Positions 3,125-53,291 of a stretch of DNA of 64,000 bases are shown in pieces; within the stretch, counting starts at the first letter, position 1, and each line of letters starts with the position of its first letter. Below the pieces are notes generated by a model. It was not told the DNA's origin. It made no database searches and saw nothing but the letters and a program-made list of their open reading frames with translations. This stretch comes from Dehalococcoidia bacterium (GTDB lineage Bacteria > Chloroflexota > Dehalococcoidia > Lucifugimonadales > UBA3495), in the NCBI GenBank assembly GCA_965205495.1, contig CBDBHA010000002.1, positions 1,782,326 to 1,846,325 of the forward strand, given 5' to 3'. A program made the position numbers and the translations under genes.

Positions 3125-3200
3125 GGAAGCGGCGATTTGGGCAACCTGGGGGGTGAAGTTTAGATTCCTCCCTACGGTTCGGAATGACAGGTTAGGGGCG
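3125..3200. repeat. interspersed repeat family F2 (core TTTAGATTCCTCCCTACGGTTCGGAATGACAGG), partial copy
   Basis: The same core recurs at 18014, 21895, 29016, 45264 and 47327. Confidence 0.8.
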
Positions 3201-3235
3201 GGGGACAACCAAAAGGCCGCACTCCCCAACAACAA

Positions 3236-3350
3236 TCAAAAAACCCCATACCGTGCAATTCAATCGCCGGCTTCTCCTCAACCCTTCTGGGTTCCGGCTC
3301 AAGGCCGGAATGACGGTTTAATGTCAGGATCACTCATCAATTCCGAACAC
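3236..3350 (+). repeat. interspersed repeat family F3 (hairpin ATTCCGGC-N5-GCCGGAAT, end motif ACTCATCAATTCYGAACAC), 5'-truncated copy
   Basis: Aligns by eye to 43690-43801 and to the reverse complement of 7860-7975. Confidence 0.8.
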
Positions 3351-3434
3351 CTACGGGGGCGAGGGTCAACTTCCCTATTGAAGGGCCAGCTATTACAATA
3401 ACGCCAGAATTTTGCGACGAGGAACGACGTCAGG

Positions 3435-4373
3435 ATGAACCTTCGCCAGCAGTTGGCTGAAGCCGCACCGGAGCGGGGAACCGTGTTGACCATTGGCGTT
3501 TTTGACGGTGTCCACCGGGGACATTGCCACCTGCTCCGGCGATTGATTGACGCGGCCCAACCGGAGTGGATGCCGGCGGCCATCACTTTCAGGAATCACC
3601 CCGCGACGGTCCTGCGGCCCGATTTTCAGGTCAACTACATCACCACGCCGGAAGCCAAGGTGGACCTGCTAAAGGCCCAGGGCGTGGAGTTGGTGATACC
3701 CCTGGAGTTCACCCGGGACCTTTCGCAAATGGACGCCGGAGACTTCACCCGAGCGTTGGTGGATGTTTTGCAATTGAAGGGGCTGGTCATTGGGCCGGAC
3801 TTTGCCCTTGGGAAAGACCGGCAGGGGAATGAAGAGTTCTTGCGCCGGACTGGTGAGGAGCTGGGGTTCTGGGTGGAAACGGTGGAGCCGTTGATCATCG
3901 ACGGAGCGGCGGTGCGCAGCCGCCGGATCAGGCAGACCATAACCGACGGAGACCTGACGGCGGGGAACAAGCTGCTGGGGCGCGAGTTTCACCTGTCGGG
4001 AGAAGTGGTGCAGGGCGACCAGCGAGGGCGGGAATTGGGATTCCCCACGGCCAATCTTGCGGTCAAAGAAGGGATGGTGGTGCCGGGGGACGGGATTTAC
4101 GCGACCTGGGCCATAGTAAACGGGCAACGGCTTCCGTCGGCCACGAGCATTGGGATACGTCCCACATTTGGGCTGACCCAGCGGTTGGTGGAAACGTACA
4201 TATTTGAGTTCAACGAAGACTTGTACGGAAAGACGCTGGGGGTGGAGTTCGTGGAGAAGCTGCGGGACCAGGAGGCTTTCGCGAGCGTGGAGGCCCTGAT
4301 AGACCAGGTAAACCAGGACGTGGCCGACGCCCGCAAGTCCTTGGCCGAAGATCAGGGGGTCCGAATTGGTTAG
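3435..4373 (+). CDS. ribF: bifunctional riboflavin kinase / FMN adenylyltransferase
   Basis: 312 aa. GVFDGVHRGH (FAD synthetase) and the C-terminal GFPTANL riboflavin-kinase motif. Confidence 0.95.
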   Translation: MNLRQQLAEAAPERGTVLTIGVFDGVHRGHCHLLRRLIDAAQPEWMPAAITFRNHPATVLRPDFQVNYITTPEAKVDLLKAQGVELVIPLEFTRDLSQMDAGDFTRALVDVLQLKGLVIGPDFALGKDRQGNEEFLRRTGEELGFWVETVEPLIIDGAAVRSRRIRQTITDGDLTAGNKLLGREFHLSGEVVQGDQRGRELGFPTANLAVKEGMVVPGDGIYATWAIVNGQRLPSATSIGIRPTFGLTQRLVETYIFEFNEDLYGKTLGVEFVEKLRDQEAFASVEALIDQVNQDVADARKSLAEDQGVRIG

Positions 4374-5586
4374 CCAGGCTGTCATCGACCAGGTCACGCG
4401 CCGGGGAGTGAAGGAGATCATCTCTCACGCCGAGTTTGTGGAGATGCTGCAAGGGGGGAAACCGCTCCGCTTGAAGATGGGGTTTGACCCCAGCCGGCCG
4501 GATATTCACCTGGGGCATGTGGTCGGGCTGCGGAAGCTGCGCCAGTTGCAGGACCTGGGACACCAGGTCATTCTCATCGTGGGGGACTGGACGGCGCAGA
4601 TTGGGGACCCCAGCGGCCGGTCGGCCACGCGGCCGATGCTGACCCACGAAGAAGTGGTGTCCAACGCCGAGTCCTACCTGCGGCAGTTCTTCAAGGTGGT
4701 GGACCGGGATCGGACTCAGGTTGAGTGGCAGAGCCAGTGGTTTGGCAAGTTTACCCTGGCGGACGTAATCCGGTTGACCAGCAAATTCACCGTGGCCCAA
4801 TTTTTGGAACGGGACGATTTTGCGCTACGGTTCCGGGAACACCGGCCCATCGCCATAACGGAGTTGTTGTACCCGTTGCTGCAAGCTTACGATTCGGTGG
4901 CGATAGAGTCGGACGTGGAGTTTGGGGGCACGGACCAGATGTTCAACCTCCTGGTGGGGCGGGAGTTACAGGGAATTATGGGGCAAAAACCCCAGCAATG
5001 CTTCCTGATGCCGATATTGGTCGGGACCGACGGCGTCCAAAAGATGAGCAAGAGCCTGGGAAACTATGTGGCGTTGGAAGAAGAGCCCAACGACATGTAC
5101 GGGAAGCTCATGTCTTTGCCGGACACGTTGATAGTTTCCTACTTTGATTACTTGACGGACGCTCCGGAGCAGGAATTGGCGGAGATGGCCCAGGCCATCG
5201 AATCGGAAGCGGTCAACCCGATGGAACTCAAAAAACGGTTGGCCAGCGAAGTTACGGCAACCTTCCACGATCCGGAAGCGGCGCGCGGGGCGCAAGCCCA
5301 CTTTGAGCGGGTTATTCAGCAACGAAGTGTGCCGGAAGAGATCCCGGAGTTCGCCTGGGACCCAGATACCATCGAGGGCGGGGTAACTTTAAGCCGCTTG
5401 TTGGTATCGGCGGGGATGGCTTCCAGCAACGGCGAGGCCAAGCGGCTGATCAACCAGCGGGCGGTACAGCTTATCCGGGAGTCGGGCGAAAGCGACGTGT
5501 TGATCAACGAAGGCGCTGCCAGGGAACTGCAACCCGGGGACGTCCTGCGGGTAGGGCGGCGGCGCTTCGTCAGGCTGACCAACTAG
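4366..5586 (+). CDS. tyrS: tyrosine--tRNA ligase
   Basis: 406 aa. HLGH (DIHLGHVVG) and KMSKS motifs, with a C-terminal S4-like domain. The TTG start overlaps the ribF stop. Confidence 0.95.
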
Positions 5587-5599
5587 GACGGAGGCAGTT

Positions 5600-7258: not shown

Positions 7259-7293
7259 GAAAGGAATATATACAATTCTACCCTGAAAGGAAG

Positions 7294-7318
7294 GGCGGGC
7301 ATAAAGCCCGCCTTTTTT
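7294..7318. terminator. Rho-independent terminator, probably bidirectional
   Basis: GGCGGGC-ATAAA-GCCCGCC followed by T6, with an A-rich 5' flank. It lies between the convergent mutase gene (+) and the 7331 ORF (-). Confidence 0.75.
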
Positions 7319-7330
7319 ACTGTTACTACC

Positions 7331-7633
7331 TTATATCTGCCTGCCCATATCCCGAACTTCCTCGGCAGACCGGTACTGCCCTTTCTCCAACCTCTGAAAA
7401 CGACGCTTTTCCAATTCGGCCATCTCCAAATTAATCCGCCTTGCATTGATTCGCTCTTGCATTACTCTAACGGCCAACTTCATGTCACGATTGGCCGTCA
7501 ACAGTAAACTGGTTGCCCGTGGAACAACTCGGTCGAACTGCTCTATCGTATCGGCAACATCATCTGGAACATTGCTATCCAGCAAGCAATCCAAAGGTGT
7601 TTCAACTTCTTCTATCTCTCCCAAATATTCCAA
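7331..7633 (-). CDS. hypothetical small helical protein
   Basis: 100-aa ORF from a TTG in an A/T-richer islet. Overlaps the upstream 68-aa ORF by 22 nt. No recognisable family. Confidence 0.3.
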   Translation of the reverse strand: MEYLGEIEEVETPLDCLLDSNVPDDVADTIEQFDRVVPRATSLLLTANRDMKLAVRVMQERINARRINLEMAELEKRRFQRLEKGQYRSAEEVRDMGRQI

Positions 7634-7818
7634 GGCTTCCTGTGCCCACGCATAAAATCCTCGACTACCATCTGCCGGTCTGGCGGGCGGATCCGGTCAT
7701 ATACTGTTAAGGTTATTTGGACAACATCTGCCCGTACACTCTGCAACTCAATAAGGCGGACAACAAAACGGTCCACCGGCTTGAAGGCAGATTCAAAGTC
7801 CTGTTGCTCTTTCCTCAA
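7612..7818 (-). CDS. hypothetical small protein
   Basis: 68-aa ORF, first of an overlapping pair. No recognisable family. Confidence 0.25.
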   Translation of the reverse strand: MRKEQQDFESAFKPVDRFVVRLIELQSVRADVVQITLTVYDRIRPPDRQMVVEDFMRGHRKPWNIWER

Positions 7819-7859
7819 CCAATAATGGCAGCTTGGCCTCTTGTTCCTTCCCTGTGTAA

Positions 7860-8030
7860 GTGTTCAGACTTGGGGAGTCATCCCAACATTAAACCGTCAT
7901 TCCGGCCTTGAGCCGGAATCCAGAATGGTCAGGGAGAGACCAGCGTTCGAATTGCGCGGGGTTTCCTGGATTCCGGCTCGGGGGCCGGAATGACGGTTCC
8001 TGGGTTGAACTAACCCATTAATTCTGAATA
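7860..8030 (-). repeat. repeat family F3, full-length double-hairpin copy in inverted orientation
   Basis: Ends are GTGTTCAGA.. and ..ATTCTGAATA. The two hairpins are CATTCCGGCcttgaGCCGGAAT (about 7897-7918) and ATTCCGGCtcgggGGCCGGAAT (about 7970-7991). Confidence 0.85.
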
Positions 8031-8140
8031 GTTACTACTCCAACCGTTACTTGACAATAGGGACAAAACATTCCAACGTCCATAACCTCTCTTACCTACC
8101 CGGCTCTGGGGCTGGGGTAGAATTACATTTAATTCCCTTT

Positions 8141-11267: not shown

Positions 11268-11355
11268 CAGGACGCTTGCCAGGCCGGGTACGACCTGGAT
11301 TGCCGCCTTCGCGGGAATGACGATAGGTGTTCGTAGGGATTTTGCAATTGGCCTG
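11268..11355 (+). repeat. repeat family F1 (MITE-like), copy with an internal deletion
   Basis: CAGGACG|CTTGCCAGG..GGATTGCCGCCTTCGCGGGAATGACG..TTTGCAATTGGCCTG. It lacks the ATTGCAAAGTG..GGGA segment found in full copies. Confidence 0.8.
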
Positions 11356-11753: not shown

Positions 11754-11857
11754 CAGGACGATTGCAAAGTGATGTTTTTGTGAGGAAAAGGGACACTTGC
11801 CAGCCATGGTCCAACCTGGATTCCCGCCTGCGCGGGAATGACGGCAGGTGTTCGTCC
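11754..11857 (+). repeat. repeat family F1, 3'-truncated copy
   Basis: CAGGACGATTGCAAAGTG...GGATTCCCGCCTGCGCGGGAATGACGG, with the right terminal inverted repeat missing. Confidence 0.8.
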
Positions 11858-12000
11858 TGATTCGCCGGGAACTCCGGTTGACCTGGTGGATGGCGTTGGA
11901 GTAAAATCGGGGCATCAGCGACCGGCAGTGGGACGCTCCCTCAGCGACCCCCCTCTTCGGAGGCCGGCCGCTCCTTTTTTGCCTAAAACCTTCGCCCGGC

Positions 12001-12549
12001 CTAGTAGGTCAGGGCGTCGGCTACGCCGTCGGGAAGCTCGACATCCAGGGCTTGGAGTGTATGGGCCAGGCCGTGGTAGTAGGCCACCACCACCAGGACG
12101 TCGACAATGGCGGCGTCGCCAATCTGGGCGCGCAGGGCATCGAAGCTGGCGTCGGAAACCCGGTGCTGCCGGAGGAGTTCCAGGACGAATTGGACCACCG
12201 CGCCATCGGAGGGTGACAACCCGGCGGGAGCGCGGTACTCGTGGATGGCGGCGATAACGTCGTCCTCCAGATTCGCTTCCTTGGAGGCCCGCTGGTTAAC
12301 GGTCCAGACGTAGTGCCCACAGGCTTCGCGGGCTGCGGTGAGGATGGCCAGGGCCTTGACCCGGGGGTCCAAGGGGGTCTCGAACCGGACGTAACCACCG
12401 AAAGCGGCAAAGTTGCGGGCGGCTTCCGGGTTGTTGAGGATGGCGGAATAGTTGCGGGCTACCCCGCCCCGGGTGCTTTCGATTTCGTCCCAGGCGGCCT
12501 GACCATCCGGGCCGATGGTTTCGCGGGTCATTAAGGGTACACGGGCCAT
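12001..12549 (-). CDS. carboxymuconolactone decarboxylase (AhpD-like) family protein
   Basis: 182 aa from the ATG at 12549 (GGAGGAATTGTC upstream). Full-length paralog of the 30708 gene, both ending in LD/FEVxLPDGV. Confidence 0.8.
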   Translation of the reverse strand: MARVPLMTRETIGPDGQAAWDEIESTRGGVARNYSAILNNPEAARNFAAFGGYVRFETPLDPRVKALAILTAAREACGHYVWTVNQRASKEANLEDDVIAAIHEYRAPAGLSPSDGAVVQFVLELLRQHRVSDASFDALRAQIGDAAIVDVLVVVAYYHGLAHTLQALDVELPDGVADALTY

Positions 12550-12610
12550 GACAATTCCTCCAACGTAGAGTGGATTTAGGGGACATTCCGGGTACAAGAG
12601 AAATCCTCAC

Positions 12611-12733
12611 CAGGACGATTGCGATGTGATGTAATTCTGAGGGAAATGGACGCTTGCCAGGAAGGGTAGGACCTGGATTCCCGCCTGCACGGGAATGACG
12701 ATGGGTGTTTGGAGGGGCTTTGCAATTGTCCTG
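12611..12733 (+). repeat. repeat family F1, complete MITE-like copy
   Basis: Terminal inverted repeats CAGGACGATTGC.. and ..GCAATTGTCCTG, central hairpin ATTCCCGC-ctgc-aCGGGAAT, flanked by AAATCCTCAC and AAACCCTCAC direct repeats. Confidence 0.85.
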
Positions 12734-12797
12734 AAACCCTCACCCCCACCGCTTGAGTCCGGTCCAGGGGTGAGGGTTTAAAGCGCGGGTTTACGGG

Positions 12798-15086
12798 TTA
12801 ATTATCGGCGGCTTGGAGTTGAGAGGAGCCGCCGTCCTTCTCCCACAAAGCTTCCAGGATGGCGCCCGGGGACATGGGGAGACGCTCCATGCGGGTGCCG
12901 ATAGCGTCGTGAATGGCGTTGGCAACCGCTGCCATTGGGGGAACTATGGGCACCTCGCCGACGCCTCGGACGCCGAAGGGATGGCCGGGGTTGGCCACTT
13001 CGACGATGACGGTCTCAATCATGGGCAGGTCCAGGCTGGTGGGCATCCGGTAGTCCAGGAAGCTGGAGTTGACCATGGTGCCCTGATCGTTCATGAAATA
13101 CTCTTCGTTGAGGGCCCAGCCGATACCTTGGACGACGCCGCCCTGCATCTGGCCTTCCACGTAGCTGGGGTGGACTGCCTTGCCCGCGTCCTGGACGGCG
13201 GAGAAGCGAAGGACGGTGACCTTGCCGGTGTCGGGGTCGACCTCTACATCGGCGATATGGGTGCTGAAGGCACCGCCGGCGCCCTTGGGGTCGACGCTGA
13301 CCTGGCTGGAAACGGGTCCGCCGGTGCGGTTGAGTTGGCCGGCCAGTTCCTTGAAGGAAATGCGGAGTTCGGGTTCGGACTTGTGCTGGAAAACGCCGTC
13401 GACCAGTTCCACGTCGTCAGCGGAGACGTCCCAGATGGTGGAGGCCCGGTCAATCATCTTCTGCTTGATGTCCTGGGCACATTCGTAGGCGGCCCAGCCG
13501 CTGGCGAAGGTGACCCGGCTGCCGCCGGTGAGGAAAGTGTAGCCCACGGAGTCGGTGTCGGCGACGCTGGGGTGGACATCTTCGGCGGGGATGCCCAGGA
13601 CCTCGGCGGCCTGCATGGCGATGGAGGCGCGGGTGCCGCCGATGTCGGTGGAACCCTCCACCAAGATGATGGTCCCGTCGGGGTTGACGCCGATGCTGCA
13701 ACTGGAGGGCATACCGATGTTGAACCAGAAGCCGGAAGCGACGCCCCGTCCCCGGTTGGGGCCGGTCAGGGGGGTGTTGTAATGGTCGGTGTTGCGGGCG
13801 GCTTCGACGACTTCAACGTTGCCGATGCGGGGGTAGACCGGGCCGTCGACGCGGCGGGTGCCTTCCTTAGCGGCGTTGCGGAGGCGGAATTCCAGCGGGT
13901 CGATTCCCAGGCGGCGGCTTAGTTCGTCGACCACCTGCTCGCCGCCGAAGGCAGCGATGGGGGCGCCGGGGGCGCGGTAAGGCGCGACCTTGGCCTTGTT
14001 GTCGACCACGTCGTAACCCTGGGAGCGGACGTTTTCAACGTCGTAGGGCGCGAAGATACACTGGGCGCCCATGGTGACGGGAGAACCGGGGAAGGCGCCG
14101 GCCTCCATGGCCAGGGTGGCTTCGGCGGCGGTAATCTTGCCGTCGTTGGTGGCGCCCATCTTAATCTTCATCCAGGAACCGGAGGTGGGGCCGGTGCTTT
14201 CGAAAACGTCGATGCGGGACATGAGCAGTTTGACGGCTTGTCCCGACTTCTTGGAGAGAACGGCGGCCAGGGGTTCCAGGTATATGGGAATTTTCCCGCC
14301 GAAACCGCCGCCAATTTCCATGGGGACAACGGTGATCTTGGAAACCGGCATGTCCAGAACCTTGGCGAGGGACTCGCGGGCGGAGAAGGAACCCTGGGTG
14401 CTGGTCCAGACCTTCAGTTGGCCGTCGGCGTTCCAGAGAGCGGAAGCGTTTTGGGGCTCGATGTAGCCCTGGTGAACGGTGGTGGTATTGAACTCGCGTT
14501 CGACGATTACGTCGGCGGCGGCAAAACCGGCTTCCAGGTCGCCCAACTCATAGCTGAAATGGGTGGCGATATTGCTGTGCTTGTCGCTGTCTTCGCCCAG
14601 CTCGTTGGTGGTCATTTCTTCGTGAAGCAGGGGAGCGCCGCCGGCCATGGCGGCCTGGACCGTGGTAACCGACGGGAGGACCTCGTATTCCACTTCGATC
14701 AGGGCCACCGCAGCTTCGGCGACGTGGGGATTGGCGGCGGCGACGGCAGCGACGGGATGGCCTCTATAGAGGACTTTGTCCCGGGCCAGCACGTTGTCGC
14801 TGGCGAAGCGCATACCCTGGTCGGGGTTTTCCATCTGGGAGATGGGCAGGTCTTTGACGGTGACCACCGCCTTGACCCCGGGATAGCCTTCGGCCTTGCC
14901 GGTGTCGATGGACTTGATGCGGGCGTGGGCGTGGGGACTGCGGAGGACCGAGCCGTGAAGGAGGCCGGTCATCTGGAAGTCGCCGCCGTATTTGGCCCGG
15001 CCGGTAACCTTGTCCGCGCCGTCGTGACGGATGGGACGGGTGCCGACCACGTTATATTCAGTGTTGGACAAAACGATATTGGCCAT
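12798..15086 (-). CDS. xanthine dehydrogenase / aldehyde oxidase / CO-dehydrogenase family molybdopterin-binding large subunit
   Basis: About 762 aa from the ATG at 15086 (GAGGTG 7 nt upstream). N-terminal a/b-hammerhead (RHDGADKVTGRAKYGGD) and Mo-binding blocks (GGGFGGK, PYRAPG, GxxE near the C-terminus). Confidence 0.9.
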   Translation of the reverse strand: MANIVLSNTEYNVVGTRPIRHDGADKVTGRAKYGGDFQMTGLLHGSVLRSPHAHARIKSIDTGKAEGYPGVKAVVTVKDLPISQMENPDQGMRFASDNVLARDKVLYRGHPVAAVAAANPHVAEAAVALIEVEYEVLPSVTTVQAAMAGGAPLLHEEMTTNELGEDSDKHSNIATHFSYELGDLEAGFAAADVIVEREFNTTTVHQGYIEPQNASALWNADGQLKVWTSTQGSFSARESLAKVLDMPVSKITVVPMEIGGGFGGKIPIYLEPLAAVLSKKSGQAVKLLMSRIDVFESTGPTSGSWMKIKMGATNDGKITAAEATLAMEAGAFPGSPVTMGAQCIFAPYDVENVRSQGYDVVDNKAKVAPYRAPGAPIAAFGGEQVVDELSRRLGIDPLEFRLRNAAKEGTRRVDGPVYPRIGNVEVVEAARNTDHYNTPLTGPNRGRGVASGFWFNIGMPSSCSIGVNPDGTIILVEGSTDIGGTRASIAMQAAEVLGIPAEDVHPSVADTDSVGYTFLTGGSRVTFASGWAAYECAQDIKQKMIDRASTIWDVSADDVELVDGVFQHKSEPELRISFKELAGQLNRTGGPVSSQVSVDPKGAGGAFSTHIADVEVDPDTGKVTVLRFSAVQDAGKAVHPSYVEGQMQGGVVQGIGWALNEEYFMNDQGTMVNSSFLDYRMPTSLDLPMIETVIVEVANPGHPFGVRGVGEVPIVPPMAAVANAIHDAIGTRMERLPMSPGAILEALWEKDGGSSQLQAADN

Positions 15087-17263: not shown

Positions 17264-17335
17264 TAGTCCGTTCACGGTTTGACGGGCTCACTAGGCATGG
17301 ACTGGAGTGGTCGTAACTGTTCAGGGTTAAAGGGT
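17264..17335. repeat. repeat family F4 (..TTCGACGGGCTCAGG..GGACTGGAG..), diverged copy
   Basis: Aligns by eye with 47480-47540 and 45337-45421. Confidence 0.55.
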
Positions 17336-17348
17336 TATCCCGATACAA

Positions 17349-17381
17349 CATCCGTCATTCCGGCTTTGAGCCGGAACGACG
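17349..17381. repeat. repeat family F3 hairpin fragment
   Basis: CCGTCATTCCGGCtttgaGCCGGAACGACG. Confidence 0.7.
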
Positions 17382-17424
17382 ATTGGGGGTTTTTAGTTTT
17401 CGAGGTGCTGGGACATTTCTTGGG

Positions 17425-17943: not shown

Positions 17944-18060
17944 GCAAGGGGGAAGTGTCAGTGAATTTTGGGGGTGGGGTCACCGTGAAGGGTTGGGGGT
18001 GGTTTTGGGCAGGGATTTTGAGATTCCTCCCTGCGGTTCGGAATGACCGGTAGGGGCGGT
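17944..18060 (+). repeat. repeat family F2 copy
   Basis: GGCAAGGGGGAAGTGTCAGT (shared with 45199) ... GATTTTGAGATTCCTCCCTGCGGTTCGGAATGACCGG. Confidence 0.75.
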
Positions 18061-18160
18061 CGGAACGACCTAGAGCGGGGGGTGGAGTGGGCATTGTATA
18101 CTGGGGGCGGCGTTCGGGATTATGGGCGTTACTTGTTTAGAACGGAAGGCGAGGGATGCC

Positions 18161-21797: not shown

Positions 21798-21829
21798 GCG
21801 AAGGGGGTTGGATGTGTGGTGGGGGGCAC

Positions 21830-21983
21830 TTTTCATTTCGTTTTGGGGAGGTTGCGACGGCGAATCCGGGGACAAACCGGCTGGCGGCGATGGATTTTAG
21901 ATTCCTCCCTACGGTTCGGAATGACAGGTGGGGGGGTCAGGATGAAGGGGGGGTTGGAAGCGGCATTTGGGGAGAATTGAGAG
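21830..21983 (+). repeat. repeat family F2, long copy
   Basis: TTTTCATTTCGTTTTGGGGAGGTTGCGACGGCGAATCCGGGGACAAACCGGCTGGCGGCGATGGATTTTAGATTCCTCCCTACGGTTCGGAATGACAGG..GGAAGCGGCATTTGGGGAGAATTGAGAG. Nearly the same string occurs at 28952-29108. Confidence 0.85.
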
Positions 21984-21997: not shown

Positions 21998-22139
21998 CAG
22001 GGCGGTTGCGAAGTGATGGAATTGTGAGGGGAAGGGAAGCTTGTTGGCCTAGGTGCAACCTGGATTCCCGCCTACGCGGGAAAGACGGTAGGTGGCGGGA
22101 ATGACGATAGGTGTTCGTTGGGACTTTGCAATTGTCCTG
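21998..22139 (+). repeat. repeat family F1, complete copy with a duplicated GGGAA(T/A)GACG segment
   Basis: CAGGGCGGTTGCGAAGTG..GGATTCCCGCCTACGCGGGAAAGACGGTAGGTGGCGGGAATGACG..CTTTGCAATTGTCCTG. Confidence 0.85.
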
Positions 22140-25657: not shown

Positions 25658-26773
25658 TTGGAGAGCACGGGGGAGCGTCCCGAACCCAAATTTGACTGGT
25701 TCATCCCCATTGACGGCGACGGTGAACACGCGGGAACGATGGAGGCGCAACGGCCGCCCACCTTTGAATACCTGCGGCAAGTGGTGCAGACGGCAGAGGA
25801 CCTGGGATTTTACTCGCTGTTGATACCCACCCGCTTCGCCAACGGGTTGTTTTCGGAAGAAGCTCCGCTGGCGGAGACCTGGACCACGGCGACGGCCCTG
25901 GCGGCGGTGACGCAGCGCATCCGGTTTTTGGTGGCGGTCAGGCCGGGGTTCATTACCCTGGGGCTGTTCGCCCAGATGGCGGCGGCGTTTCACCAGATTT
26001 CCGGCGGGCGGCTGGACTTGAACATCGTCCCCGGTGGTATCCAGAACGACTTGGAGCGGCTGGGGGAGGTCAGCGACCAGGCCACCCGGTACGAGCGGGC
26101 CGAAGAATTCATAGACGCTTGCCGGACCCTATGGGAAGGGCCGGGGCCAGCCCACTATGAAGGACGATTTTACCGGTTGCAGGGGGCGTACTGTTCGCCA
26201 TCGCCGCAGGATGGGGGTCCCAAGTTCTACCTGGGAGGAGTGTCGGAGCGGGCCATGGGGCTGTCGGCGCGGCAGGCGGACGTTCACCTGGGCTGGATTG
26301 AGCCGTTGGAACAAACGGCCGGCAGGTTGGAGTCTTTGCGGGAGCAATTCCAGCAGACCGGGCGGACGCCTTTTTTCGGGATTCGCACCCATCTGGTGGT
26401 GCGGGACACGGAAGAAGAAGCGTGGCGGGCAGCGGATGAACTGATCGCCCAAGCGGACCCTCGGGTGAAGGCCCAACGGCGGTCGGCGACGGAAGGGGCG
26501 CCGATGGTGGGAGTGCAGGCCCAATCCCGCAAGGCTCCCGACCACCGGCTGGGACCCCGGCTGTGGAACGGGTTGTCGGAAGTGCGGGTCAACTGCGGCA
26601 GCGCGTTGGTGGGCACCCCGGAGCAGGTCGCGGACGAGTTGCTGGAGTATTGGAAGCTGGGGCTGGACGAGTTCATCCTGTCCGGGTTTCCCCACGTTGA
26701 GGAATGCCACCGGACGGCGGCCCAGGTCCTGCCTTTGTTGAAGGAAAAGGTGGCGGCGGAGCGGGACAAGTAG
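25658..26773 (+). CDS. LLM-class flavin-dependent oxidoreductase (SsuD/alkanesulfonate monooxygenase-like)
   Basis: 371 aa. TTG start 6 nt after AGGAGG. Luciferase-like TIM-barrel pattern (FDWFIPIDGD.., LGFYSLLIPT, LNIVPGG). Confidence 0.85.
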   Translation: MESTGERPEPKFDWFIPIDGDGEHAGTMEAQRPPTFEYLRQVVQTAEDLGFYSLLIPTRFANGLFSEEAPLAETWTTATALAAVTQRIRFLVAVRPGFITLGLFAQMAAAFHQISGGRLDLNIVPGGIQNDLERLGEVSDQATRYERAEEFIDACRTLWEGPGPAHYEGRFYRLQGAYCSPSPQDGGPKFYLGGVSERAMGLSARQADVHLGWIEPLEQTAGRLESLREQFQQTGRTPFFGIRTHLVVRDTEEEAWRAADELIAQADPRVKAQRRSATEGAPMVGVQAQSRKAPDHRLGPRLWNGLSEVRVNCGSALVGTPEQVADELLEYWKLGLDEFILSGFPHVEECHRTAAQVLPLLKEKVAAERDK

Positions 26774-28866: not shown

Positions 28867-28951
28867 TTAGACCTCCCGGCTTTTGGGTTGGCCGAAACAG
28901 TCTAGGATTAGCGGTTATCGCTGTCAAACGGAGGGTTGGCGGAGCGGGGTC

Positions 28952-29108
28952 TTTTAATTGTTGTTGTGGGGAGTTTGGGCCGACTAGTCCAGGGCAAACC
29001 GGCTGGCGGCGATGGATTTTAGATTCCTCCCTACGGTCGGAATGACAGGTGAGGGGGTTGGGGTGACATTGGGCAGGGGGCTGGAAGCGGCATTTGGGGA
29101 GAATTAAA
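28952..29108 (+). repeat. repeat family F2, long copy, followed by a 15-nt F1 left-end fragment at 29125-29139
   Basis: Near-identical to 21830-21983 by eye, then CAGGACGATGGGTGC. Confidence 0.85.
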
Positions 29109-38651: not shown

Positions 38652-38775
38652 GTAGGACGATTGCAAAGTGGTGCAATTCGGGGCAAAAGGGAGGCTTGCC
38701 AGGCCAGGTACGACCTGGATTCCCGCCTTCTCGGGAATGACGATAGGTGTTCGTAGGGACTTTGCAGTTGTACTG
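38652..38775 (+). repeat. repeat family F1, complete copy
   Basis: TAGGACGATTGCAAAGTG..GGATTCCCGCCTTCTCGGGAATGACG..CTTTGCAGTTGTACTG, flanked by the direct repeat CTGTTGGGG (38643-51 and 38776-84). Confidence 0.85.
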
Positions 38776-43626: not shown

Positions 43627-43632
43627 CTTAAC

Positions 43633-43801
43633 TATTCAAAATGAAGGAGTTGGCCCAACCCAAGATGCGTCGTTCCGGCCTCGAGCCGGAACCCAGGAAT
43701 CCCGGTCATTTAGAACGCTGGTCTCTCCCTGACCATTCTGGATTCCGGCTCAAGGCCGGAATGACGGTTTAATGGCAGGATTACTCATCAATTCTGAACA
43801 C
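43633..43801 (+). repeat. repeat family F3, full-length double-hairpin copy
   Basis: Fills the whole mnmA-rnhB intergenic gap. Its right end ..CAATTCTGAACAC abuts the mnmA stop codon (43802-04). Confidence 0.85.
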
Positions 43802-44875
43802 TTACGCCAAATCGTGTTCGATGACTCCGCCGCCCAATACGGTGTCGCTCTGGTAAAAGACCGCCGCCTGGCCCGGAGTGACCGCCCGTTGGGGTTGGTC
43901 GAACCGGACGACGGCGCTGCCAGCCGACGCGGAGAGGGTCGCGGGGGCCTCTTCAAACTTGTAGCGGATTTTGACTCCGATGCGGGTCGGTTGTTCCGGA
44001 GGCAGGCCGGAAACGTAGTTGACACGGGAAACGAGGAACTCCTGGCGGTAAAGTTCGGCTTCGGGCCCCACCACGACGGTGTTGGTCTCGGGTTCCAGGC
44101 GCACGACGTAACGGGGAGCGCCACCGGAGAGGCCGAGGCCCCGCCGTTGGCCCACGGTGAACATTTCGATACCTTCGTGGCCGCCGAGGACGTTGCCCGC
44201 CGAATCAACGATTTGACCCGGTTGAGTGGTGACCCGCTCTTTCAAAAAAGCTTTGTAGTCGCCGAAGGGGATGAAGCATATATCCTGGCTGTCAGGCTTT
44301 TCGGCGTTGGGAAAGCCGGCATCCAGGGCAAATTGGCGGATTTGCGGCTTAGAATAAGCACCGACGGGCATCAGGGTGTGGGCCAGTTCGTCTTGACCCA
44401 TGCCGTAGAGGACGTAGGACTGGTCCTTGCCGCCGTCCAGGCCCTTTTTCAAGGACCAACTGCCGGGGGATTGCTCGATGCGGGCGTAGTGCCCGGTGGC
44501 CACCAGGTCCGCGCCCAGCACCTGGGCCCGGTGGGCCAGGAAGTTGAACTTAATCTTGTCGTTGCAGGCGATGCAGGGGTGGGGGGTGCGGCCCTTCTGG
44601 TACTCGGAGCAGAAGTAGTCGATGACGAAGTCCTGAAACTCCCGTTGGACGTTCATCACGTAATGGGGGACGCCGAGGCGGTGGCAGACCATGCGGGCGT
44701 CATCGACATCATCGACGGTGCAGCAACCGCGGTAGTAATCGGGGAGGTCGGCGTGATCTAGGCTGTAGAGCTTCATGGTGACGCCCACGACGTCGTAACC
44801 CTGCTGCTGCAACAAGAGGGCCGCCACCGAGGAGTCAACGCCGCCGCTCATGGCGACCACGACACGTTCTTTCAT
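43802..44875 (-). CDS. mnmA: tRNA-specific 2-thiouridylase
   Basis: 357 aa. VVAMSGGVDSSVAA PP-loop, C..C.. and the full MnmA pattern. Confidence 0.95.
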   Translation of the reverse strand: MKERVVVAMSGGVDSSVAALLLQQQGYDVVGVTMKLYSLDHADLPDYYRGCCTVDDVDDARMVCHRLGVPHYVMNVQREFQDFVIDYFCSEYQKGRTPHPCIACNDKIKFNFLAHRAQVLGADLVATGHYARIEQSPGSWSLKKGLDGGKDQSYVLYGMGQDELAHTLMPVGAYSKPQIRQFALDAGFPNAEKPDSQDICFIPFGDYKAFLKERVTTQPGQIVDSAGNVLGGHEGIEMFTVGQRRGLGLSGGAPRYVVRLEPETNTVVVGPEAELYRQEFLVSRVNYVSGLPPEQPTRIGVKIRYKFEEAPATLSASAGSAVVRFDQPQRAVTPGQAAVFYQSDTVLGGGVIEHDLA

Positions 44876-45198: not shown

Positions 45199-45318
45199 GG
45201 CAAGGGGGAAGTGTCAGTAGAGCAGGGCGTTTTCATTGTCGTTGGAGGGTTGGCGGCGATGGATTTTAGATTCCTCCCTGCGGTCGGAATAACAGGTAGG
45301 GGTGGGCGAATGACAGGC
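45199..45318 (+). repeat. repeat family F2 copy
   Basis: GGCAAGGGGGAAGTGTCAGT..TTTTCATTGTCGTTGGAGGG..GATGGATTTTAGATTCCTCCCTGCGGTCGGAATAACAGG..GCGAATGACAGG. Confidence 0.8.
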
Positions 45319-45336
45319 GGAGCGGGGGCGGAGTGA

Positions 45337-45978: not shown

Positions 45979-46119
45979 GGGGACGATTGCAAAGTGATGC
46001 AATTCTGAGGGAAAGGGACGCTTGCCAGGCCACGTGCATCCTGGATTCCCGCCTACGCGGGAATGACGGTAGGTGCGGGAATGACGGTAGGTGTTCGTCG
46101 GGACTTTGCAATTGTCCTG
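45979..46119 (+). repeat. repeat family F1, complete copy with a duplicated GGGAATGACGGTAGGTG segment
   Basis: GGGGACGATTGCAAAGTG...CTTTGCAATTGTCCTG, flanked by CAGGAACAAGG and CAGGATGAAGG. Confidence 0.85.
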
Positions 46120-47151: not shown

Positions 47152-47161
47152 GTTCGTAAGG

Positions 47162-47258
47162 GTTCAGAATTGATGAGTTAGTCCAACCCAAGATCCGTCA
47201 TTCCGGCTCGAGGCCGGAATGACGGTTTAATGTTGGGATGATTCCTTGACTCTGAACG
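47162..47258 (+). repeat. repeat family F3, short single-hairpin copy
   Basis: GTTCAGAATTGATGAGT..CCGTCATTCCGGCtcgagGCCGGAATGACGG..CTCTGAACG. Confidence 0.85.
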
Positions 47259-47263
47259 CTTGC

Positions 47264-47373
47264 TTTTAATTGTCGTTGTGGGGGGTTTGCGACGACGAAT
47301 CCGGGGCAAACCGGCTGGGGGCGTTGGATTTTAGATTCCTCCCTGCGGTCGGAATGACAGGTTAGGGGGTTGG
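47264..47373 (+). repeat. repeat family F2 copy
   Basis: TTTTAATTGTCGTTGTGGGGGGTTTGCGACGACGAATCCGGGGCAAACCGGCTGGGGGCGTTGGATTTTAGATTCCTCCCTGCGGTCGGAATGACAGG. Confidence 0.85.
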
Positions 47374-47479
47374 AATTGCGGGTGGCCCTGGCTAGGCCAC
47401 GTATGAGGAATGAAAATGGAATTGCACTGGAACCCTTCGCAACTTGTTATTTTCATGCCAATGGGGGTGTTTAGTGCGA

Positions 47480-49688: not shown

Positions 49689-49704
49689 TTCTGCCGACCT
49701 ACAG

Positions 49705-49791: not shown

Positions 49792-49820
49792 ACGCCCGCC
49801 GTTAAGGGCGTTGTGGGAAG

Positions 49821-49998: not shown

Positions 49999-50037
49999 AA
50001 ATTTGACCCTATCCGGTCGCCAGGTAGGGTCAAATTT
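49999..50037. terminator. 13-bp-arm inverted repeat in an A/T-rich spacer, a possible bidirectional terminator
   Basis: AAATTTGACCCTA-tccggtcgccagg-TAGGGTCAAATTT, lying between the tRNA pair (+) and the convergent SMP-30-like gene (-). Confidence 0.4.
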
Positions 50038-50091
50038 TGGGCCGGACTCGAATGGGCTCTTATTAGTTTCAATTTTTGACCGACTAGAAAC

Positions 50092-51012: not shown

Positions 51013-51251
51013 GAGCGCCTCCTTAAAAAATCCGAGTCTGTTTTCATGATCGTTCGTGGTCCGATTTTAAGCGTCCTGGGACTATTTTCAAAGGCAGCAT
51101 CCCCCTTTAACCTTGGAAATACCTGATATTGCGGGTTTTACTGAGTACGAGTACTGTACTTTTCAAAGCCGTTGGACTGCTCGGAATGACGGTGGAAGCA
51201 GGCCTGATGGGGCATACAGCCATCACTTGACGGGAAGATTTGTGGACTGCT

Positions 51252-53096
51252 ATGAAGCTCATCAGCCGGAACATACTCTGGATCTTGCTTCCGTTCGGTT
51301 TAACGGCCGCCTGTTTCGGCAGCCAGCAGGTCAAGACGCCCGCCGATGGAATCGTTCAGCAAGATGCCGCTGCGGTTACCGAGACGGCCACGAAGGATGA
51401 TGTTAGCGTGAAGTCCAATGAGGATTCGGCCCCCTTCAGCGAGAGCGTCCGGCCCCACTTCTATGCTTTGGGTGATGACGGAAGCCCGCAGCCGGTGCAG
51501 GGAAAACCCGACCGCATCGTCACCTGGCGGGGCAAGGTGAAGGTGCGGTTAACCAACGGCGGTGAATATCAGTACCTAGACCCTTTGTCGCTCAACTCCG
51601 GGCTGATTGGCGAGCATCCGGCCCAACGGGCGCTGCGTCTACACGAGTCGGGTGTGGCGCTTGATGCTAAATTGGGAGATGAACTGCGATCACTAACCCC
51701 GCCCGACGACCTGTTTCATAGCCTGACCTTCCAGTACCTTCCCGGCAAGGAGACCAGCGGCATAATTTCGGACGTTTTCCCCGACGGCACTTTCCTGGTA
51801 ATTGTTCCGGATGTTCCGGCGGAATGGCGGAGCGAGCACCCGGAGGTTGCCAGTCCGACGCATTTGCACGTGAACCCACGAGCTTTGACAGCCGGGCAGT
51901 CGGAACTAGCCCAAGAGTTTGAGGAGGAGATTCTCTCCCTATCTTTTGAAGACCAGCGGTATCCCCCACCCGACTTGGCCAGGAAACAGTGTGGCGTCTA
52001 TTACGAGAGCCTGTCCGGGGCCGAGTACGCCGGCCTGCTCGATACAATCGGGTACCGGTTTACCTTGGGGCATGTGGTCGAGGGTGATACCGACGCATCC
52101 CAGCCCTTCGGAGAGCGGTTGCTGGCAATACTGCGAGGTGGCGCCGGCCAGGACACGAGCTATTTTGGGTACGGCCGCTACTGGTTGGCCGCCCGGTTGG
52201 CGGAGTTGCAGGCCGCCTGGATTGCGGAGTGCGACACGGCCGGGTCAGTACGGACTTACCGCAAGAAGGGGGCTGCCGCGGACAGTTATTACCTGGTCGT
52301 CCGGCGTTCCCTGGAGCCGGAGAAGACCTCCAGATACCGGGTGCTGGCATTGGATGATGATGGGTCGGCGCGGGAAATCTACATCGCGCCGGGAATCATA
52401 CTGATGGCAATGCCCCTGCCTTTCGACGACAACTACTGGCTTTTGAGCGCCGAAGGTTGGAAATCGCCCGACGACGGGGACCAGGCGGACCCCCGGTGGC
52501 AGACGGTCTACCTGGTAAACCTGCGGGACCCGGAGGAGTACCACAAAGTCCAGTACCCCATTCAGCAGTTTCCCGACGCGCCCGAGGCGGGCCTCTACGG
52601 GGTTTCCCCCAGGTTGAGCGCCGACGGCAGGTTCCTTTTCAATACCCTGTATGGCTTTAAGGACGAGGGCGGGGGCATCTGGGTGTCGGACCTGTCCGCG
52701 GACGACTACTACACCCATCCCGAACTGTTCGCCCGGGTTGTCGCTTGGGACCATACCCTGAGTTGGATGAAGCTGGAGCGTGATGATGACGGGCCATTGC
52801 CCCACTTCCACCTGTTTATGACCGGAAAGGAGGTGGCCGACGACTTCGCCATGACCGCCAACGTCCTGCGCGTAAAGGACGCCGGGCTGGAGTCGTCGAT
52901 CCTATACCAGGAGCGGCTTCTGCAAATGGTGGGCTGGAACCCCGTCCCATTTGCGGTGCAACGCTTGAGCGACACCCGATTTCGCGTTGCCGTCGAGACC
53001 CATTTCAACTACGAAAGCTCGCTGCTGCCGCGGGCCAAGGGCGTCTACATAGTGCCCGTGGACCTGGAGGCGATTGAGGCTAAAGCCAGTCCTTAA
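51252..53096 (+). CDS. predicted lipoprotein of unknown function
   Basis: 614 aa from MKLISRNILWILLPFGLTAAC (lipobox L-T-A-A-C). No recognisable domain. Confidence 0.6.
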   Translation: MKLISRNILWILLPFGLTAACFGSQQVKTPADGIVQQDAAAVTETATKDDVSVKSNEDSAPFSESVRPHFYALGDDGSPQPVQGKPDRIVTWRGKVKVRLTNGGEYQYLDPLSLNSGLIGEHPAQRALRLHESGVALDAKLGDELRSLTPPDDLFHSLTFQYLPGKETSGIISDVFPDGTFLVIVPDVPAEWRSEHPEVASPTHLHVNPRALTAGQSELAQEFEEEILSLSFEDQRYPPPDLARKQCGVYYESLSGAEYAGLLDTIGYRFTLGHVVEGDTDASQPFGERLLAILRGGAGQDTSYFGYGRYWLAARLAELQAAWIAECDTAGSVRTYRKKGAAADSYYLVVRRSLEPEKTSRYRVLALDDDGSAREIYIAPGIILMAMPLPFDDNYWLLSAEGWKSPDDGDQADPRWQTVYLVNLRDPEEYHKVQYPIQQFPDAPEAGLYGVSPRLSADGRFLFNTLYGFKDEGGGIWVSDLSADDYYTHPELFARVVAWDHTLSWMKLERDDDGPLPHFHLFMTGKEVADDFAMTANVLRVKDAGLESSILYQERLLQMVGWNPVPFAVQRLSDTRFRVAVETHFNYESSLLPRAKGVYIVPVDLEAIEAKASP

Positions 53097-53262
53097 AATA
53101 GCGGCCAAGAGTGATGCGCTTCAGGTCCACGGCGGCAGGGCAACCGCGTCTTAACTTTCAACATACCAAACAAGCCGAAATCGCCGGAAAACTCCGATGA
53201 TTCCCGCGAAAGAGGCAATCCACACTGTTTTGCACCGGCAAATTGGTCCTGGCCCGCGACTT

Positions 53263-53291
53263 CTGGATTCCCGCCTGCGCGGGAAAGACGG
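53263..53291. repeat. repeat family F1 hairpin core only
   Basis: CTGGATTCCCGCCTGCGCGGGAAAGACGG. Confidence 0.65.

Follow-up and report, generated by a model that had tools for sequence, protein, structure and literature searches.

Hairpin repeats in a Dehalococcoidia genome that probably belong to the CGTC-tagged REP (dRS3/NTS) class and ride within small composite elements

Three repeat families (F1, F2 and F3) recur in a 64,000-nucleotide stretch of a Dehalococcoidia bacterium genome (hereafter, the window). The original prediction held that they share one hairpin core with compensatory stems and fixed flanks, read by a structure-specific protein. What is this core, and what carries it? 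The families proved real, and core counts in the window lie far above chance. F1 has seven cores, all on the + strand (at 11297, 11818, 12675, 22062, 38717, 46043 and 53265; chance expectation none), F3 has seven (3289+, 7894-, 7968+, 17352-, 43667-, 43740+ and a palindromic copy at 47195/47198) and F2 has six, all on the + strand (3162, 18021, 21899, 29021, 45268 and 47333). All 20 are intergenic, with about 80% of the window coding on a crude gene map. The hairpin form CTGG-ATTCCNGC-loop-GCN'GGAAT-GACGG accounts for 14 copies (seven each of F1 and F3), to which the six F2 cores are related; a covariance model built from unrelated genomes found exactly these 14 window sites and missed F2.

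Within the window, the inner stems of F1 and F3 differ by a single base-pair swap (C:G to G:C), together with a loop of 4 versus 5 nt, and the predicted covariation is weak from the window alone; with other genomes added it is decisive. The same flanks recurred in many phyla in a scan of 185,579 species genomes, and pairing was kept in nearly every case in the inner stem, which the search left unconstrained. Among 130 matches to CTGGATTCC-N10-GGAATGACGG, stem pair 6 was C:G in 75, G:C in 37, T:A in 7, A:T in 8 and other in 3, with all four Watson-Crick pairs occurring; paired cells reached 99% across 39 distinct sequences, and the observed score was attained by 0/500 shuffles. The inner stem was paired in 188 of 208 relaxed cores, and covariation was found at two or three positions within the loop-5 class. 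Conservation of the hairpin through compensatory changes, as the original prediction proposed, is supported. The shared simple hairpin holds for F1 and F3 and does not extend to F2, which reads ATTCC-TC-(2 bp)-loop3-(2 bp)-TC-GGAAT. Its TC/TC internal loop is conserved, the two distal pairs show compensatory changes between genomes (CC/GG, GC/GC, AC/GT), and its core has no stable fold by itself.

Sequence comparison makes it likely that the core common to F1, F3 and F2 is the CGTC-tagged REP hairpin, which would equate it with the neisserial dRS3/NTS and the 'Ssn-related motifs' (SRM). The 29-base hairpin motif has already been described and is not new; the Chloroflexota host and the small transposable carriers are local details. 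The superfamily was defined by Di Nocera, De Gregorio and Rocco (BMC Genomics 2013, PMC3733652), in whose scheme Neisseria CGTC-1 REPs are dRS3, and the window tag, 8-bp stem opening with AT, 4- or 5-nt loop and CCA tail fit their CGTC-1/CGTC-2 definitions. Read on the - strand, F1 is CGTCATTCCCGCG(C/A)AGGCGGGAATCCAG. Six of the seven F1 cores differ from the NTS consensus CGTCATTCCCGCGMAVGCGGGAATCYRG (PMC11893778) at no more than one position, and five fit the SRM pattern (0.6 expected in shuffles). The identity of one core to Neisseria lactamica copies (Table 1) bears out the likeness to dRS3 noted in the original prediction. The published SRM search pattern misses F3 and F2, and their recognition by an Ssn enzyme would be an extrapolation.

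SsnA, a GIY-YIG nuclease of 94 aa, binds NTS as an ssDNA hairpin and cleaves it (Chenal et al., Nat Commun 2025, PMC11893778); Chloroflexota are not mentioned in that paper. Binding depends most strongly on the C directly 3' of the palindrome, cleavage depends most on the 3 nt directly before it, and RNA is neither bound nor cut (PMC11893778). These critical positions coincide exactly with the conserved flanks CCAG and CGTC, which supports the proposed protein specific for structure plus a fixed flank. As established in other systems, the cleavable strand as ssDNA (5'-CGTC-ATTCCNGC-loop-GCN'GGAAT-CCAG) folds into an 8-bp hairpin, and an Ssn-family nuclease, which has one GIY-YIG domain and a length of about 95 aa, binds it and cuts the same strand a few bases upstream, sparing dsDNA, RNA and the opposite strand. 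Recognition of both the unpaired flanks and the shape of the stem by the enzyme explains why the flanks are fixed and the inner stem is substituted only pairwise. All five distinct GIY-YIG (PF01541) genes of ~100 aa that were encountered have an NTS within about 90 bp (loci L090, L129, L210, L258 with the near-identical L259 and L260, and L261). Searches with phmmer (E<=10) of the window, of ~85 kb of sequence from its close relatives and of 26 Chloroflexota loci found no Ssn/GIY-YIG ORF. We infer that the genome probably has a gene for an Ssn enzyme.

In this genome the hairpin does not move by itself. Its carriers are composite elements of at least three unrelated, non-autonomous kinds (F1, the F3 doublet and a 194-nt element; Table 1), which end in inverted repeats and are flanked by target duplications of 8-12 bp. 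The core is the best-conserved part within the carriers. The 12-bp duplications of F1 agree at 9-11/12 positions in four copies, and a target duplication is not clear at two of six F1 copies or at the F3 doublet at 7.9 kb. A relative with ~95% nucleotide identity has clean empty sites for three F1 copies, the 43.6-kb F3 doublet, the 53.1-kb element and the 3.1-kb F2+F3 block, each with one copy of the duplicated target, and the F1, F3-doublet and 194-nt carriers were inserted recently. The F2 element at 45248-45332 is shared with the orthologous site in L249 and is therefore older than the F1 and F3 insertions. The 194-nt element holds a degenerate inverted hairpin (~53195) and the core at 53263. 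No autonomous element with F1, F3 or F4 ends was found. The carriers are probably mobilised in trans by transposases of the cut-and-paste (DDE) type. A 36-kb inversion polymorphism has an F3 doublet at each end, one of them the copy at 7856-8035, and the crossover lies within a 64-nt identical tract that contains a perfect F3 hairpin. A duplication of 8 bp is a feature of the IS66 family. The F3 ends (GTAAG..., 8-bp duplication) appear only to resemble IS66-family ends (PMC12888890).

Table 1. Hairpin cores and repeat elements in the window
Feature	Positions	Strand	Remarks
F1 hairpin core	11295-11323	+	- strand reads as NTS CGTCATTCCCGCGAAGGCGGCAATCCAG; <=1 mismatch to NTS
F1 hairpin core	11816-11844	+	29/29 identical to N. 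lactamica dRS3/NTS
F1 hairpin core	12673-12701	+	core count, covariance model, NTS comparison
F1 hairpin core	22060-22088	+	followed by 19-nt tandem duplication of half-stem plus tag
F1 hairpin core	38715-38743	+	core count, covariance model, NTS comparison
F1 hairpin core	46041-46069	+	followed by 19-nt tandem duplication
F1-type hairpin core	53263-53291	+	inside fourth composite element
F1 composite element, 5'-truncated	11269-11354	+	missing at orthologous site of relative L128
F1 composite element, internally deleted	11755-11858	+	12-bp target duplication GGTTCACCGGGC/GATTCGCCGGGA; empty site in L128
F1 composite element, MITE-like	12612-12732	+	inverted ends AGGACGATTGC.../...GCAATTGTCCT; 12-bp duplication GAAATCCTCACC/GAAACCCTCACC; L128 empty site with one copy
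F1 composite element	21999-22138	+	decayed duplication
F1 composite element	38654-38774	+	duplication ACTGTTGGGGGT/GCTGTTGGGGCG; L249 empty site ACTGTTGGGGAG
F1 composite element	45980-46118	+	duplication TCAGGAACAAGG/GCAGGATGAAGG, 9/12 positions
Fourth composite element, 194-nt	53136-53329	+	inverted ends CAGGGCAAYCGC; ~10-bp duplication; missing in L249
F3 half-element (spacer, hairpin 3287-3316, arm)	3248-3355	+	part of ~207-bp F2+F3 block missing in L128
F3 doublet	7856-8035	.	arm, hairpin(-) 7894-7923, spacer, hairpin(+) 7966-7996, arm; ends GTAAGTGTTCAGA.../...TCTGAATAGTTAC
F3 single long-palindrome copy	17316-17420	.	one side degenerate; hairpin 17352-17377
F3 doublet	43628-43805	.	opposite orientation to 7856-8035; hairpins 43667-43696(-), 43738-43767(+); 8-bp duplication GCCACATC/GCCAAATC; L249 empty site GCCAGATC
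F3 collapsed single hairpin	47156-47261	.	arm, CCGTC-stem-loop-stem-GACGG, arm; DNA fold z-score -7.7
F2 element, short	3149-3198	+	core 3162-3191; TGTC tag, interrupted stem, CTA tail
F2 element	18008-18070	+	core 18021-18050
F2 element	21829-21963	+	core 21899-21928; F1 element directly downstream
F2 element	28951-29085	+	core 29021-29049
F2 element	45248-45332	+	core 45268-45296; also at L249 orthologous site
F2 element	47263-47397	+	core 47333-47361; abuts F3 copy

The strand-bias check proposed with the original prediction gave no relation to transcription (69:63) and, within Chloroflexota, a clear polarity relative to GC skew (22:2, p = 3.6e-5), the cleavable strand being the C-rich strand; this polarity was not seen outside Chloroflexota (29:23). 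In the window, F1 plus F2 gave 13/13 (13:0), and strong strand polarity recurs over many Dehalococcoidia genomes. It probably reflects single-strand exposure at the replication fork, and the transcription-independent orientation together with the GC-skew polarity suggests action on the DNA rather than the RNA level.

Several other explanations were weighed. Mobilisation as ssDNA hairpins by a RAYT (IS200/IS605-like), as in a classical REP/REPIN, was the leading original suggestion; the REP-like anatomy (unpaired 4-nt tag 5' of a GC-rich hairpin, inverted doublets) agrees with it, and the replication-strand polarity in Chloroflexota also fits transposition via ssDNA. However, the tag is CGTC/TGTC and not GTAG/GTGG, an HUH-Y1 motif ORF is absent from the window and 119 REP loci, and the insertions here are bracketed by target duplications of 8-12 bp and have inverted ends that lie outside the hairpin. 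To our knowledge, Y1 transposition produces neither. A RAYT partner is unsupported. Di Nocera et al. (PMC3733652) detected no CGTC-flanked RAYT in any species, and we regard this explanation as the most improbable of all. A role at the RNA level, whether in stabilising the 3' ends of transcripts of flanking genes, as RNase targets or as terminators, in the manner of E. coli REPs or neisserial Correia elements, would suit the intergenic setting of all copies, which agrees with the report of Di Nocera et al., and the excess of unidirectional/convergent settings across phyla (78+27 vs 18 divergent). Yet the sequence shows no T-run after the stem on either strand, an Rfam search gave no match at E<=1, the asymmetric flanks lack an orientation preference to transcription, divergent genes flank four window sites and SsnA is inactive on RNA (PMC11893778); an RNA role is improbable, and the suggested RNA-binding factor is likewise unlikely.

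The integrase named in the original prediction is not supported: IS110-type enzymes do use dRS3, though in these data the neisserial Nf prophages are the sole case. The hairpins could be attachment or target sites of an IS110-family (Piv/Irg-like) recombinase, as dRS3 is for the filamentous Nf prophages of Neisseria, and be conserved through that use. Bentley et al. (PMC1797815) proposed that dRS3 are recombinase sites; a viral-contig scan gave 12 Nf-type prophages (TspB, Zot, Rep_trans) with an IS110-family transposase adjoining a terminal hairpin, and the 36-kb inversion crossed over in a tract with a perfect F3 hairpin. Every such match is nevertheless a neisserial-type prophage, the window and 119 genome loci contain no IS110-type ORF, and ordinary homologous recombination suffices for a crossover in a 64-nt identical tract. 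Site use would also leave origin, spread and cross-phylum conservation unaccounted for, and we give this explanation little credence. There is a similarly small chance that the hairpins here are functionless passengers, an ancestral REP caught once or a few times by MITEs whose amplification the copies mirror. F1, the F3 doublet and the 53.1-kb element do transpose as units, F2 cores are decayed and older, and an Ssn gene was not seen locally. Against this, the same 29-nt module sits in at least three carriers with unrelated ends, the core is better conserved than the rest of the carrier, F1 cores stay close to the NTS consensus of other phyla (6/7 with <=1 mismatch), and strong polarity in many Dehalococcoidia genomes is hard to obtain by random MITE insertion.

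The preferred identification as a CGTC/NTS-type hairpin agrees with the published NTS/SRM and Ssn system in that the window repeats are intergenic, high-copy and oriented, and GIY-YIG genes adjoin such hairpins in the loci examined here. The host, an uncultured member of Chloroflexota, belongs in contrast to a phylum unmentioned in the Ssn paper (PMC11893778), and F3 (5-nt loop, GGC/GCC inner stem) and F2 (interrupted stem, TGTC tag) lie outside the published SRM pattern; the inverted-end, target-duplicating elements that contain the window hairpins and the GC-skew polarity are both undescribed for NTS. The CGTC superfamily (PMC3733652) shares the CGTC (or TGTC) tag, the 8-bp stem opening A and T, the CCA tail, inverted dimers and several families per genome without an adjacent transposase, CGTC-1 having a 4-nt loop as in F1 and CGTC-2 a 5-nt loop as in F3. 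It was reported from five phyla, Chloroflexi not among them (Chloroflexi had GTAG repeats only), and palindromic flanks were viewed as possible insertion targets, whereas here flanks plus hairpin insert together, as the empty sites indicate. Like dRS3/NIMEs, whose ATTCCC-N8-GGGAAT is contained in F1 (one core being identical to N. lactamica copies), the families cluster in shared intergenic regions (F2+F1 at 21.8-22.1 kb; F3+F2 at 47.2 kb) and mark a chromosomal rearrangement (the 36-kb inversion); unlike them, the window has no long dRS3-RS-dRS3 arrays, Nf prophage or IS110 integrase, and the genome has 60% G+C and is of another phylum. GTAG-tagged REPs/REPINs with RAYT share the short tagged hairpin, inverted doublets, extragenic high copy number and ssDNA recognition, but they have another tag and a RAYT, whereas the window motif lacks a RAYT and target duplications are made; the protein known to partner it belongs to the GIY-YIG nucleases and not to the HUH-Y1 enzymes. 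Bacterial MITEs (Correia/NEMIS, RUP, Nezha) resemble F1, the F3 doublet and the 53.1-kb element in being 100-200 nt long, non-coding, bounded by inverted ends and target-site duplications and polymorphic between close relatives; they differ in that here at least three unrelated families bear one and the same foreign hairpin module.

The repeats of the window are NTS/CGTC-REP hairpins in Chloroflexota, with the F3 and F2 families as variants that the published search pattern does not cover; neither the motif nor its mechanism is new, both having been published before. The three families of hairpin cores anticipated in the original prediction were all recovered: seven F1 cores, each on the + strand (0 expected from shuffles), seven F3 cores, and six F2 cores, again each on the + strand. 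According to the gene map, all 20 copies within the 64 kb (14 of F1 and F3, 6 of F2) are intergenic. Copies occur singly or in doublets, at irregular spacings of 521 to 16,655 nt (0.5-16 kb). The window is ordinary chromosomal sequence from an uncultured member of Chloroflexota whose nearest named relatives are Dehalococcoidia/SAR202-type MAGs, and its EF-G has a 100% identical counterpart encoded on metagenome-assembled contigs of 2.4-3.5 Mb; the genes examined with Pfam are housekeeping genes, and no transposase or integrase was found among them. Most direct-repeat families of the window originate from a pair of very long ORFs, of 1057 and 671 aa, that consist of 69-nt periodic repeats; TSP3_bac of Pfam (bacterial thrombospondin type-3 Ca-binding repeats) matches 19 stretches of the first and 5 of the second. 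A tRNA-Gln called by ARAGORN within a luciferase-like monooxygenase ORF was not called by Rfam, also at E ≤ 1, and probably represents a false positive.

On the opposite strand, F1 reads CCGTC-ATTCCCGC-GCAG-GCGGGAAT-CCAG. CGTC-tagged REPs are defined by a CGTC (or TGTC/CCTC) tag, an 8-9 bp stem opening with A and T and a CCA tail, with a loop of 4 nt in CGTC family 1 and of 5 nt in families 2-4, and CGTC-1 in Neisseria is dRS3 (PMC3733652). The unpaired tag is present in all three window families, as CGTC in F1 and F3 and as TGTC in F2. Stem, loop and tail also agree in F1 (ATTCCCGC, loop 4, CCAG) and F3 (ATTCCGGC, loop 5, CCAG), whereas F2 has an interrupted stem, a 3-nt loop and a CTA tail. 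The 28-nt NTS consensus, CGTCATTCCCGCGMAVGCGGGAATCYRG (Chenal et al. 2025, PMC11893778), was fitted at ≤1 mismatch, the search criterion of the NTS authors, by six of the seven F1 cores, all forward on the - strand, and not by F3 or F2. The degenerate pattern of the Ssn-related motif (SRM), HGTCWYN(0-2)YYVSBRHN(0-5)WNVSBRGN(0-2)RNCYNB, matched five F1 cores and one unrelated site (shuffles expect 0.6); no F3 or F2 core matched it, yet both keep the hairpin, with its GTC tag and the C that follows the palindrome. The likeness to dRS3 pointed out in the original prediction was borne out, in that ATTCCC-N8-GGGAAT is exact in 5/7 F1 cores (the core at 11295 has ATTGCC and that at 38715 has CGGGAAT) and one F1 core agrees with N. 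lactamica copies (locus L026) at 29/29 positions.

Within the window, F1 and F3 differ by one swapped base pair and by loop length, and the proposed compensatory stem changes are weak there. Species representatives (GTDB, one genome per species) were scanned for CTGGATTCC-N10/11-GGAATGACGG with the inner 10-11 bases unconstrained. At least 119 stretches matched, and by our arithmetic ~9 chance matches are expected in the whole collection; the same flanks recur in many phyla, as foreseen for a widely distributed motif. The matches listed came from Chloroflexota, Alpha-, Beta-, Gamma- and Deltaproteobacteria, Nitrospirota, Planctomycetota, Patescibacteria and others, and their Proteobacteria include Neisseria, Dyella, Cupriavidus and Agrobacterium. 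Among the matches listed, the unconstrained bases nearly always read NNN-loop-N'N'N'; stem pair 6 was C:G in 75, G:C in 37, T:A in 7, A:T in 8 and other in 3, and the two following pairs were nearly invariant as G:C and C:G. Over 39 distinct sequences among these matches, 99% of cells were paired, and none of 500 shuffles reached the observed covariation. The class with a 5-nt loop (TCAAG) had the inner stems GTG/CAC, GGA/TCC, GGG/CCC, GGC/GCC and GTA/TAC. Covariation is decisive once other genomes are included, and a covariance model built from foreign sequences recovered from the window the 14 F1 and F3 sites and nothing else.

F2 forms a separate class, RAG-ATTCC-TC-[2 bp]-loop3-[2 bp]-TC-GGAAT-GACA, in which an internal loop (TC/TC) is conserved and the distal stem covaries; the class was also found in other Chloroflexota, one Nitrospirota and one Gammaproteobacteria MAG, and as a naked fold it is not stable. 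Downstream of four F2 cores lie G-rich tracts such as GACAGGT(T/G)AGGGGG, which loosely resemble the FtsK-orienting KOPS (GGGNAGGG) in the same strand polarity; this may be coincidence.

The structure-specific protein proposed to read a hairpin with fixed flanks has a published counterpart in the GIY-YIG nuclease Ssn. SsnA is a 94-aa single-domain GIY-YIG nuclease that binds the NTS hairpin solely as ssDNA, cuts upstream of the hairpin, and is inactive on the opposite strand, duplex DNA and RNA; binding depends most on the C right after the palindrome and cleavage most on the three bases before it, and ssn genes (cd10448) are flanked by NTS-like motifs across phyla (PMC11893778). Ssn-type recognition of the hairpin would account for the fixed flanks and the compensated stem changes. 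An NTS was present within ~90 bp of all five distinct ~100-aa GIY-YIG genes met in loci from other genomes (L090, L129, L210, L258 with the near-identical L259 and L260, and L261), and the ssn-motif association was thus reproduced independently in other taxa. The Ssn-like protein family is very large, and its ~70% identity across phyla parallels the near-identity of the hairpin across phyla. Searches with phmmer (ORFs ≥50 aa) of the window, of ~85 kb from close relatives and of 26 loci from Chloroflexota returned no Ssn/GIY-YIG protein, and the best 120 of at least 7,999 protein-database matches included none on the contigs of this genome. A solved Ssn structure was looked for and none was found.

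Those best 120 of at least 7,999 (P0241-P0360) are Ssn-like GIY-YIG proteins of 96-98 aa from Nitrospirota, Nitrospinota, Armatimonadota, Beta- and Deltaproteobacteria; many lie on very short contigs, which together with the cross-phylum identity suggests frequent horizontal transfer and assembly breaks at the flanking repeats. On a Nitrospiraceae chromosome (OZ335950.1; L258/L259, 2165-6297), the Ssn-like gene overlaps an N6/N4 DNA methyltransferase gene at its end, in a defence-island-like context with toxin-antitoxin genes and a ResIII helicase, and an NTS is located 8 bp past its stop codon.

In the window, F1 and F3 hairpins are carried by longer elements (F1, the F3 doublet and the 53.1-kb element) that have inverted ends, are non-coding and fall within 70-300 bp, as MITEs do; the ends agree at 15/16 positions in F1 elements and at 11/12 in the 53.1-kb element. 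A relative at ~95% nucleotide identity (L128 and L249, same contig) has one core against nine in the window genome, and at each of its empty sites the target, duplicated around the window insertion, is present once. Duplications of 12 bp flank four F1 copies, and none is clear at F1 #1, F1 #4 or the F3 doublet at 7856. The F2 and F3 block near the start of the window is an insertion too, and one F2 copy is older, since the relative has it as well. No empty site was recognisable for F2/F3 at 17.3-18.1 kb, where L128 is too diverged, or for F1 at 45980, where L249 is not alignable. The combination of inverted ends and target duplications is the hallmark of DDE-type (cut-and-paste) insertion, as opposed to single-strand chemistry of the Y1 or Ssn type. 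Because of the empty sites and target duplications, we conclude that the hairpins here move as MITE-like cargo. Among all fetched loci, the F1 inverted end was found in this species only, and a 20-mer scan of JGI metagenomes for an F1 parent element gave seven chance hits with no similarity past the 20-mer.

Features of the window and of the elements that carry the hairpins
Feature	Position	Strand	Length	Ends, make-up or content	Target duplication (empty site in relative)
F1 element, general			~121-140 nt	AGGACGATTGCAAAGT / ACTTTGCAATTGTCCT; one hairpin, off-centre	
F1 insertions	12612, 11755, 38654				12 bp (yes)
F1 copies with 19-nt tandem duplication	22060-22107, 46041-46087			half-stem, tag and 8 nt: CGCGGGAA(T/A)GACGGTAGGTG	
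F3 doublet, general			~180 nt	GTAAGTGTTCAGA...; arm, hairpin(-), spacer, hairpin(+), arm	
F3 doublet insertion	43628-43805				8 bp (yes)
F3, other forms			106 nt (collapsed form)	collapsed single hairpin; half copy	
F3-type end				GTAAGTGTTCAGAAT	8 bp
F3 cores (pattern search)	3289, 7968, 43740	+			
F3 cores (pattern search)	7894, 17352, 43667	-			
F3 core, self-complementary copy (pattern search)	47195/47198				
F2 and F3 block	3149-3355				
F2 cores followed by G-rich tracts	3176-3198, 21913-21935, 29034-29057, 47346-47368	+			
F2 shared with relative	45248	+			
53.1-kb element	53136-53329		194 nt	CAGGGCAAYCGC; seemingly 'solo' F1 core at 53263 and degenerate inverted hairpin	~10 bp (yes)
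Block missing from L128	~7260-8130 (L001 ~12126-12996)		~880 bp	F3 doublet; ORF 7331-7633 (- strand)	
Gap with F3 and F2 repeats	47151-47596			extra gene in relative, L249 10954-11920	
TSP3_bac-type ORFs	55222-60743	-			
ARAGORN tRNA-Gln call	25892-25969			within ORF 25658-26773	

Doublets also occur in Proteobacteria (L088, L041, L086, L056 and L023), as hairpin(-), a ~60-nt spacer with its own small hairpin, and hairpin(+). These extend no further than the CGTC tags, where similarity between copies stops close to the predicted sites of Ssn cutting, whereas Chloroflexota doublets have ~40-nt arms past the tags. The 19-nt duplication in two F1 copies sits where Ssn would be expected to cut the opposite strand. 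Two further differences from the relatives were observed. The block 3' of EF-G that is missing from L128 holds a 100-aa ORF without a Pfam match and is bracketed by direct repeats like TTTCTAAAG / TTTCCTAAAA. Between the luciferase-like gene and the PEP-mutase gene that follows it, the relative and the more distant L250 carry one more gene of the PEP-mutase family; the window lacks this gene and has F3 and F2 repeats in the gap.

In two independent short-read metagenome assemblies (L005 and L006), window position 7887 (descending) is joined to 43713 (ascending), the junction that an inversion of ~35.8 kb between two F3 doublets of opposite orientation would produce. The crossover falls within a 64-nt identical tract (7887-7950 and 43713-43776) that holds a perfect F3 hairpin; the junction may instead be a repeat-induced mis-join of the short-read assemblies. 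As for the inversion, the window arrangement is probably the ancestral one, since the order in the relative matches it and GC skew is uniform.

All 13 F1 and F2 copies point in the same direction, the flanking genes run both ways, and GC skew is positive throughout the window. Of the two kinds of strand bias suggested for checking, that with transcription was absent, the hairpin orientation relative to the upstream gene being 69:63 across phyla. Bias with GC skew was detected in Chloroflexota loci with |GC skew| ≥ 0.03, where CTGG...GACGG lies on the G-rich strand in 22/24 copies (p = 3.6e-5), against 29:23 in other phyla; the Ssn-cleavable strand is therefore on the C-rich strand. The G-rich strand is generally the leading strand; if this applies here, the cleavable strand would belong to the leading-strand template, the one least exposed as single strand. 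The polarity fits an enzyme that acts on one single strand only, and it may reflect avoidance of self-cutting or a strand-specific insertion route. In a more far-reaching reading, which we regard as rather improbable, the Ssn hairpin in Dehalococcoidia-type Chloroflexota would be a selected module, repeatedly captured by different cut-and-paste MITEs and kept in one polarity, so that the chromosome would be spared at the fork and Ssn would cut single strands that enter the cell or are displaced; on this view, Ssn/NTS would be a replication-aware ssDNA restriction system that tells self from non-self. If this were true, the recent insertion burst in this lineage would offer a natural system for finding what spreads the hairpins.

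Other readings of the repeats were considered. The RAYT suggested in the original prediction as recogniser gives way to the GIY-YIG nuclease: a motif search that covered every ORF of the window and of 119 loci returned no HUH-Y1 candidate, and the GT[AG]G of RAYT-associated REP/REPIN sequences is absent 5' of the hairpin foot, with the CGTC or TGTC tag instead. All-vs-all ORF clustering of the 119 genome loci, which would have grouped a common transposase beside the repeats, gave housekeeping families only (SDR, luciferase-like, ABC and acyl-CoA dehydrogenase), and IS110 as a general partner was found only in neisserial Nf prophages. An Rfam family was not matched at gathering thresholds or at E ≤ 1. 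Intrinsic terminators are rejected by the lack of a T-run, since the stems run into GACGG on one strand and CCAGG on the other, and a CRISPR array by the irregular spacing and the position of copies inside longer repeated units.

At its core, the result rediscovers a published motif, whose protein partner is likewise published, and it opens no new field. CGTC repeats were reported in five phyla, Chloroflexi not among them, and 'apparently lack a dedicated transposase' (PMC3733652). The range of NTS/CGTC-REP hairpins is widened here to uncultured Chloroflexota, and two variants are added, F3 and the F2 class with its interrupted stem, both missed by the published pattern. MITE carriage, insertion polymorphisms and GC-skew polarity are modest but testable additions; to our knowledge, there was no earlier direct insertion evidence, in the form of empty sites and target duplications, for the spread of such hairpins. 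The dRS3/NIME arrays that alternate with RS elements are absent here, the window copies being single or in doublets. The transposase question for CGTC REPs was left open in PMC3733652, and in this genome ordinary MITE-like elements carry the hairpins as cargo.
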